Source: a phage
Direction: 5' to 3' (one strand)
Length of the DNA stretch: 64,000 nucleotides
Sequence record: PQ400055.1
In this document: positions 45,318 to 45,466 of the stretch, in pieces
Layout of the letters: each line of letters opens with the position of its first letter
Numbering within the stretch: the stretch's first letter is position 1
Position numbers and translations under genes: made by a program
Notes under the pieces: model-generated
Told to the model about the DNA's origin: nothing
Seen by the model: the letters and a program-made list of their open reading frames with translations, nothing else
Databases searched by the model: none

Positions 45318-45466
45318 TATAGGGAAGGTAGCGAATCTTCCTTGTCTCCAACCTGCTAGCGGCCTAGCAAGTGAATGCTTTAGCGTACCGGATCACCCCA
45401 TACGCTGTAATAAATGCGGCTAGGTGACGTCCAAATCATTCTAACCGCGCTGTCTTTAGTTCACTA

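Follow-up and report, generated by a model that had tools for sequence, protein, structure and literature searches.

The window analysed here is a stretch of 64,000 nucleotides of phage DNA (sequence record PQ400055.1), and all positions are given in its coordinates. Its sequence places it in Krischvirus, the RB49-like T4-type phages. The 551 bases around the element described below are 100% identical to those of Escherichia phages kvi, FL37 and FL38, and 95-100% identical to those of 59 records, every one of them a Krischvirus. All of the genes around the element are on the minus strand. The element itself is a conserved non-coding stretch of 148 nt (45319-45466, minus strand) flanked on the same strand by the stop codon of ORF118 (45467-45469) and a terminator (45297-45318). 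The upstream gene (45467-45685, minus strand) encodes an ORF118-like small membrane protein of 72 aa (phrog_15168), the relatives of which are restricted to Krischvirus-like phages, and is the last gene of the dmd operon. Further upstream on the minus strand are Dmd, the antitoxin against RnlA/LsoA (46376-46579, identified by a Pfam match), and the anti-CBASS protein Acb1 in the 57B position (47298-47768). Because dmd and Acb1 lie less than 2.5 kb upstream of the element, this hyperplastic region can be viewed as an anti-defence island. Between the element and the gene 53-like ORF (52785-53339) the coordinate offset from phage GEC-3S shifts by approximately 1.6 kb, so the window phage has extra DNA at about 47800-52700 relative to GEC-3S.

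With the element placed in the GEC-3S annotation, the gene order is rI, tk, vs, regB, endolysin, many small ORFs, the element, dmd, 57B (Acb1), 57A, gene 1 and gene 3. In T4 the order is e, rnaC, rnaD, tRNAs, ipI, 57B, 57A, gene 1 and gene 3. By gene order the element region is syntenic with the T4 segment that contains e, the tRNAs, rnaC/rnaD and 57B. Since the two orders correspond, the analogy with the T4 small RNAs made in the original prediction holds for position. RB49-type phages are without tRNA genes. ARAGORN likewise returned 0 tRNA genes for the entire 64-kb window, in line with the earlier failure to recognise a cloverleaf. A tRNA or tmRNA was rejected on this result and on the lack of any tRNA-clan Rfam match even at E up to 10.

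The absence of coding capacity that had been predicted for 45318-45466 is upheld: no ORF of 32 aa or more overlaps these positions. The only overlapping ORFs are mechanical ones of 25-31 aa that extend into the neighbouring gene, the terminator or the promoter. A hidden small protein was considered and rejected, as the sole ATG frame, of 19 aa, is disrupted by loop indels of 1-2 nt in relatives. The 'hypothetical proteins' called here in a few records were also dismissed; they lack conservation and cross both the terminator and the promoter. The G+C content of the element is 48% versus 40% for the window. In none of the 59 Krischvirus records is the element annotated as an RNA.

The element is followed by an intrinsic terminator (45289-45318, minus strand) with a 9-bp stem and UUCG loop at 45297-45318 and then a U tract. 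The original prediction had placed a strong terminator at the element end, and the 9-bp stem, TTCG loop and T run agree with it. The terminator is invariant in all relatives and is annotated as such in GEC-3S, TB34 and G5211. In RB49 a terminator at the same place was already predicted in 2006 by TransTerm (Nolan et al. 2006). The early promoter of the dmd operon (46779-46807, minus strand) has the form TTGACA-17-TAAGAT and is an annotated promoter in GEC-3S. No minus-strand terminator was found between this promoter and 45318. With an early promoter upstream and no terminator before 45318, the element constitutes the 3' UTR of the dmd operon, which has seven genes.

The next cassette, which carries an ORF117-like gene (DUF7421), begins directly beyond the terminator. 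Its early sigma-70 promoter (45237-45265, minus strand; TTGACA-17-CATAAT, 11 of 12 matches) is context and lies outside the element. A 61-nt early promoter and leader repeat is found in three copies that are 67-100% identical (44254-44314, 45216-45276 and 47205-47265), and the second copy belongs to this cassette. Promoter-early stem-loop (PeSL) cassettes of RB49-type phages have been described (PMC2839356). A PeSL was taken to be a recurring composite unit in which a sigma-70 early promoter and an AT-rich tract upstream are combined with a terminator stem-loop. Because the promoter and leader are repeated three times nearby, the terminator and promoter can be read as a PeSL-type cassette. The terminator (45297-45318) and promoter (45237-45265) beside the element fit the PeSL description, and the element borders a block-exchanged cassette. 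Unlike a PeSL, however, the 148-nt element is single-copy and lies outside the repeated PeSL sequence. No second copy of it was found within the window, and the idea that it is a repeated element or part of a PeSL was discarded since only the downstream promoter and leader repeat. The description of PeSLs makes no mention of ORF117, ORF118 or any non-coding or small RNA (PMC2839356).

Sequence constraint was assessed in an alignment of 20 phage loci to which more divergent viral and metagenome copies were added. The divergent copies came from a search for ORF118 protein homologues, from contig look-ups and from scanning viral and metagenome contigs for patterns. Across 22 genomes 16 of the 149 columns in the element vary. 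Seven of these are among the 12 columns of one apical loop, that of the hairpin H2 described below, and the other nine are spread over the remaining 137. For comparison, the variable fraction was 14/61 at the third-codon positions of ORF117 (8/29 at its four-fold sites), 37/72 at the third-codon positions of ORF118, and 26/102 in the adjacent promoter and leader (22 genomes in each case). Third-codon variation in the flanking genes was therefore 23-51%. The element outside the loop differs from the third positions of ORF118 at a Fisher p of 4e-13 and from those of ORF117 at p = 0.0016, which is significant though based on few sites. Divergence (K) was 0.024 for the element and 0.010 without the loop, and dS was 0.06 for ORF117 and 0.18 for ORF118. 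The ratio K/dS was approximately 0.17-0.4 against ORF117 and 0.06-0.13 against ORF118. In divergent metagenome relatives the ORF118 DNA is 78-86% identical, the element 95-99% and the terminator 100%. Because its variation is far below that of neighbouring silent sites, the element is constrained at the nucleotide level. Judged from these comparisons it is under purifying selection, and this extends to the unpaired linkers as well as the stems.

The choice of yardstick matters here. A block of approximately 490 nt (45005-45495) that contains the element, terminator, promoter and ORF117 is less diverged as a whole, so a fair neutral yardstick must lie inside it. As the element sits within this block, part of its conservation reflects recent shared ancestry. 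Could recent exchange account for all of it? The element would then be a functionless leftover spacer, conserved by hitch-hiking in a recently exchanged cassette made up of the element, PeSL and ORF117. The block is indeed 96-100% identical even where the flanking genes of relatives are only 77-82% identical, and the exchange of cassettes through PeSLs has been documented for RB49 and phi1 (PMC2839356). However, the silent sites of ORF117 and the promoter and leader, all inside the block, vary three to four times more than the element outside the H2 loop. The variation in the element is also confined sharply to one apical loop, unlike that of a neutral spacer. We consider hitch-hiking unlikely.

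The H2 apical loop (45390-45401) evolves at the silent-site rate or faster. It carries indels of 1-2 nt, and at least eight loop alleles are present among approximately 25 sequences. The loop may be either unconstrained or under diversifying selection.

The hairpins named in the original prediction (GGAAG/CTTCC, AGCGTA/TACGCT and a GCTAGC-rich palindrome) were all recovered on the minus strand, at 45323-45341, at 45382-45406 as AGCGTAT/(G)TACGCT, and inside 45347-45375 as TGCTAG-GCCG-CTAGCA. One further hairpin, absent from that prediction, is formed by GCGGTTAG/CTAGCCGC (45416-45448). This hairpin, H1, has an 8-bp stem (GCGGUUAG/CUAGCCGC) and an inner 4-bp stem on the minus strand and is part of every predicted fold. 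All 12 of its pairs are invariant among 19 distinct sequences, and its loop has a single change, C to T at 45429 in the locus L022. H2 (45382-45406, minus strand) has a 7-bp stem below the hypervariable loop. H3 (45347-45375, minus strand) has 8-12 bp and a GCCG loop, with the core UGCUAG-GCCG-CUAGCA. Its upper 8 bp are invariant, and one outer pair is disrupted by a transversion, C to A at 45373, in three phages. H4 (GGAAG/CUUCC; 45323-45341, minus strand) is seen in the 186-nt fold, and the A to G change at 45339 in L022 retains a G-U pair. Alternatively, the H4 loop pairs with the 5' end of the element (45458-45466 with 45329-45338) to give a closing helix, P1, which turns H1-H3 into a multi-branch junction. 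P1 is seen in the 149-nt fold and in the RNAalifold consensus. H4 and P1 are mutually exclusive.

The fold z-score of the minus strand is -3.9 with the terminator and -2.5 without it, and that of the opposite strand is -1.8. By raw energy the element ranks 14th to 15th among 2129 minus-strand windows of 150 nt (top 0.7%). In a scan of the same windows with energies regressed on G+C content it ranks approximately 50th to 80th (top 2-4%). By these fold models its stability is above chance and not extreme.

Other stretches of the window also drew attention. The lowest GC-corrected minus-strand energies belong to the 150-nt windows 52721-52870, 35231-35380, 19571-19720 and 5771-5920, with residual z of -3.8 to -4.3, stronger than the element. 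Two of these four overlap the late-promoter regions of the gene 53-like ORF and rI. A second non-coding 3' tail of approximately 235 nt lies at 34340-34575 on the minus strand, after the stop of the ORF at 34576-35073. It precedes a terminator, AAAGCCATCCGAAAGGGTGGCTTTTT (about 34318-34343), and then a PeSL-type early promoter. This tail has no sequence similarity to the element at 45319-45466, and it could be a second candidate for a structured 3' UTR or small RNA.

The substitutions in the stems of the element bear on the strand at which constraint acts. H2 is the only variable helix and 100% of its cells stay paired. One of its pairs passes from G-C through an intermediate G-U (L022) to A-U (L026 and L027), which is a compensatory change, and single transitions to G-U occur in two more pairs of the 7-bp stem. 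All four one-sided stem transitions give G-U on the minus strand and C-A mismatches on the plus strand. The structure model also contains seven invariant G-U pairs, which DNA or the plus strand could accommodate only as mismatches. Support from formal covariation is weak. A double change is seen in 1 of 42 pairs, in two related sequences (probably a single event), 34 pairs never vary, and the covariation score was matched by 9 of 500 shuffles. As H1 and the H3 core never vary, they neither support nor contradict the fold. Stem changes that retain pairing on the minus strand suggest that the constraint probably acts on the minus-strand RNA.

These observations also weigh on the idea that the conserved object is DNA, such as a protein-binding or recombination site in the palindrome-rich region upstream of the ORF117 promoter, or a site of cassette exchange. 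Near-perfect DNA palindromes such as TGCTAGGCCGCTAGCA would suit this, as would a location 50-230 bp upstream of a strong early promoter and at the border of a recombination-prone PeSL. The seven G-U pairs and the one-sided changes, all of which produce G-U, are mismatches in DNA and on the plus strand, however, and argue against it. The element is single-copy, unlike PeSLs, and the clustering of its three CTAG sites is not unusual for the window (not significant). A site of this kind seems very unlikely.

The arrangement of a structured domain of approximately 130 nt, then an intrinsic terminator, then genes on the same strand also recalls a riboswitch-like or attenuator leader. In this case a ligand- or protein-sensing fold would control terminator read-through into ORF117 and beyond, and the mutually exclusive P1 and H4 could provide the two states. 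By inspection of the folds, however, neither P1 nor H4 overlaps the terminator stem, and ORF117 has a strong promoter of its own downstream of the terminator. No riboswitch in Rfam matched the element even at E up to 10. We regard such a leader as scarcely credible.

The element is present in one copy per genome in 59 of 59 Krischvirus records, at 96.6-100% identity. Outside Krischvirus none was found in the phage collection, even by sensitive and distant blastn searches. Approximately ten further Krischvirus-like copies were recovered from viral and metagenome contigs, none of them more distant. Searches of Escherichia coli genomes and plasmids gave generic terminator matches only, and bacterial and archaeal genomes contained no relative of the element. 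One metagenome copy departs from the common structure. In L030 (OQVL01013596.1, positions 1-60, corresponding to the window from about 45340 onward) H1-H3 are kept and the sequence departs from every other copy right after GGAGAC(G)AGGAAGA. There H4 and the terminator are replaced by unrelated sequence that perhaps starts a new ORF (..GGAAACGGAAGATGGG). The break is at a contig end and could be a cassette insertion or an assembly chimera.

Membership in a known RNA family did not hold up, as the Rfam 15 covariance models gave 0 matches in the window at gathering thresholds. The best sub-threshold matches, RNAI (22.8 versus 47 bits) and EF3314_EF3315 (21.5 versus 100 bits), were driven by the terminator. 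Like RNAI (RF00106), of approximately 100 nt, the element has three consecutive hairpins ending in a terminator. Unlike a member of that family, it scores 22.8 against a gathering threshold of 47, and does so via the terminator hairpin. No description of the element, or of such an RNA in Krischvirus, was found in the literature. We consider it plausible that it is a Krischvirus-specific non-coding RNA that has not previously been described.

In position the element resembles the T4 RNAs. Like rnaC and rnaD (species 1 and 2), the element is a small structured non-coding unit of 120-170 nt, located on the early-gene strand of the hyperplastic region that separates the lysozyme gene from 57B/57A/gene 1. 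Its sequence, however, is similar to neither of them. It lacks a tRNA-like T arm in the folds inspected and has no tRNA genes beside it, and it has a terminator of its own, whereas rnaC and rnaD are annotated inside the tRNA cluster. Homology was rejected because local alignment scores of 13 and 16 did not differ from the shuffle means of 15.2 and 14.4. The element showed no similarity to the remainder of the T4 e-57B region. A covariance model of the element (R1) had no match in the T4 locus. It matched Krischvirus loci only and none of 79 loci outside them, approximately 1.4 Mb around gene 1 of diverse T4-like phages, though its sensitivity is limited by the default filters and by construction from near-identical sequences. 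The T4 analogy of the original prediction therefore stands for the equivalent genomic position and fails for homology to rnaC and rnaD.

The 5' edge of the element coincides with a sequence of a different kind. An exact match to the T4-type late promoter consensus, TATAAATA, lies at 45468-45475 on the minus strand, overlapping the last codons and the stop of ORF118. In the 64-kb window there are 4 copies of TATAAATA versus 5.5 expected by chance. The other three are 20-32 nt upstream of gene starts, those of rI, a baseplate gene and another late gene. Because these copies precede genes and the motif does not exceed its chance frequency, spurious copies appear to be rare in the genome. The copy at the element overlaps the codons TAT-AAA-TAA, so it could have an incidental origin. 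The late promoter motif spans -13 to -6 relative to the start site, which would put the start at G45462 and give an RNA of approximately 172 nt. The sequence thus predicts a discrete late RNA of that length from TATAAATA to the terminator. The motif is retained in all relatives but L029. In this contig (MAVA01000028.1, positions about 3320-3335, corresponding to 45463-45476 of the window) a 14-nt deletion removes both TATAAATA and the normal stop, and ORF118 ends in ...KLN* rather than ...KRYK*. It is a natural variant without the putative late promoter. The promoter lists for RB49 have no entry at the position of TATAAATA (Nolan et al. 2006), and no published Krischvirus transcriptome or expression data were found in the literature.

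Taken at face value, these features suggest two transcripts. Early in infection the element would be the 3' untranslated tail of the dmd operon mRNA, a transcript of approximately 1.5 kb between the promoter at 46779-46807 and the terminator at 45297-45318. At late times the gp55-type promoter TATAAATA, which overlaps the stop of the last gene, would direct initiation near G45462, and this second transcript would end at the dmd operon terminator, yielding the discrete RNA. The RNA may bind a protein or base-pair with another RNA, and so do more than block exonucleases. We infer sequence-specific recognition because the hairpins and the unpaired linkers alike are nearly invariant. For the four unpaired segments, the best duplexes with potential targets in the 64-kb window were no better than shuffled controls. 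On this evidence the element is probably a functional RNA. We tentatively favour the reading in which it is a structured RNA that works through sequence-specific recognition, made early as the dmd operon tail and probably also late as a separate RNA of approximately 172 nt. The candidate small RNA of the original prediction is upheld as far as a non-coding, constrained, terminator-bounded element with minus-strand structure and the late-promoter consensus at its 5' edge. Its accumulation as a free RNA, its transcription from the late promoter and its action in trans are what we infer beyond this.

From the sequence alone, a small RNA that exists free cannot be told apart from a 3' UTR that serves the dmd operon purely in cis. 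Under the latter, the hairpins and the terminator would protect the operon mRNA or time its decay, and no functional separate RNA would be made. Variants of this idea would have the element block 3' exonucleases, or provide an RNase E or RegB entry or cleavage site at the linker GGAG. The position of the element suits such a tail: it fills the gap from the last stop codon to the operon terminator, and no other terminator precedes it. T4-type phages heavily regulate the decay of early mRNA, and RB49-like phages encode RegB. The second long non-coding tail at 34340-34575, before another terminator and promoter cassette, suggests a recurring layout. For 3' protection a terminator hairpin alone is normally enough, and approximately 100 invariant nt, including unpaired linkers, exceed what a passive stabiliser needs. 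The late-promoter consensus at the exact 5' edge would also have to be a coincidence. A purely cis-acting role is possible but, on balance, doubtful.

A bolder version of the trans-acting RNA would direct it at the host. The late RNA would act on a host RNA-binding protein, or on a defence nuclease that targets RNA, as a decoy or sponge, with the H2 loop shaped by an arms race, and would be the functional counterpart of T4 rnaC/rnaD in these phages, which have no tRNA genes. The anti-defence neighbours and the hypervariable loop permit, and do not demonstrate, a role in host-phage conflict. We think this specific proposal has little likelihood. According to a 2010 review, no regulatory RNA of T4 that acts in trans had been characterised functionally, and what rnaC and rnaD do was unknown.

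Among bacterial small RNAs, the closest general kind is the DapZ/MicL type, RNAs that derive from a 3' UTR and have their promoter within the coding region upstream. Like these, the element closely follows a stop codon on the coding strand and is bounded by the intrinsic terminator of the mRNA. Its promoter consensus likewise overlaps the end of the upstream ORF, and it is more conserved than neighbouring silent sites. Unlike these, its putative promoter is of the phage gp55 late type and not a host sigma-factor promoter. With a predicted length of approximately 172 nt and four hairpins, it is also more structured than typical small RNAs that consist of a seed and a terminator. RNAs of this kind are discrete stable transcripts that bind a chaperone (Hfq or ProQ) and pair with targets, and the comparison with the element is by layout.

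The element is best filed as a candidate non-coding RNA that is restricted to one genus, new, and of a known general kind. It is a conserved element bounded by a promoter consensus and a terminator, in the island equivalent to that of T4, in a genus that is well sampled and used in phage therapy. Should it prove to be no more than a 3' UTR, it would stand out all the same as an mRNA tail under unusual constraint in a tightly packed genome and would bear on the control of the dmd (anti-RnlA) operon.
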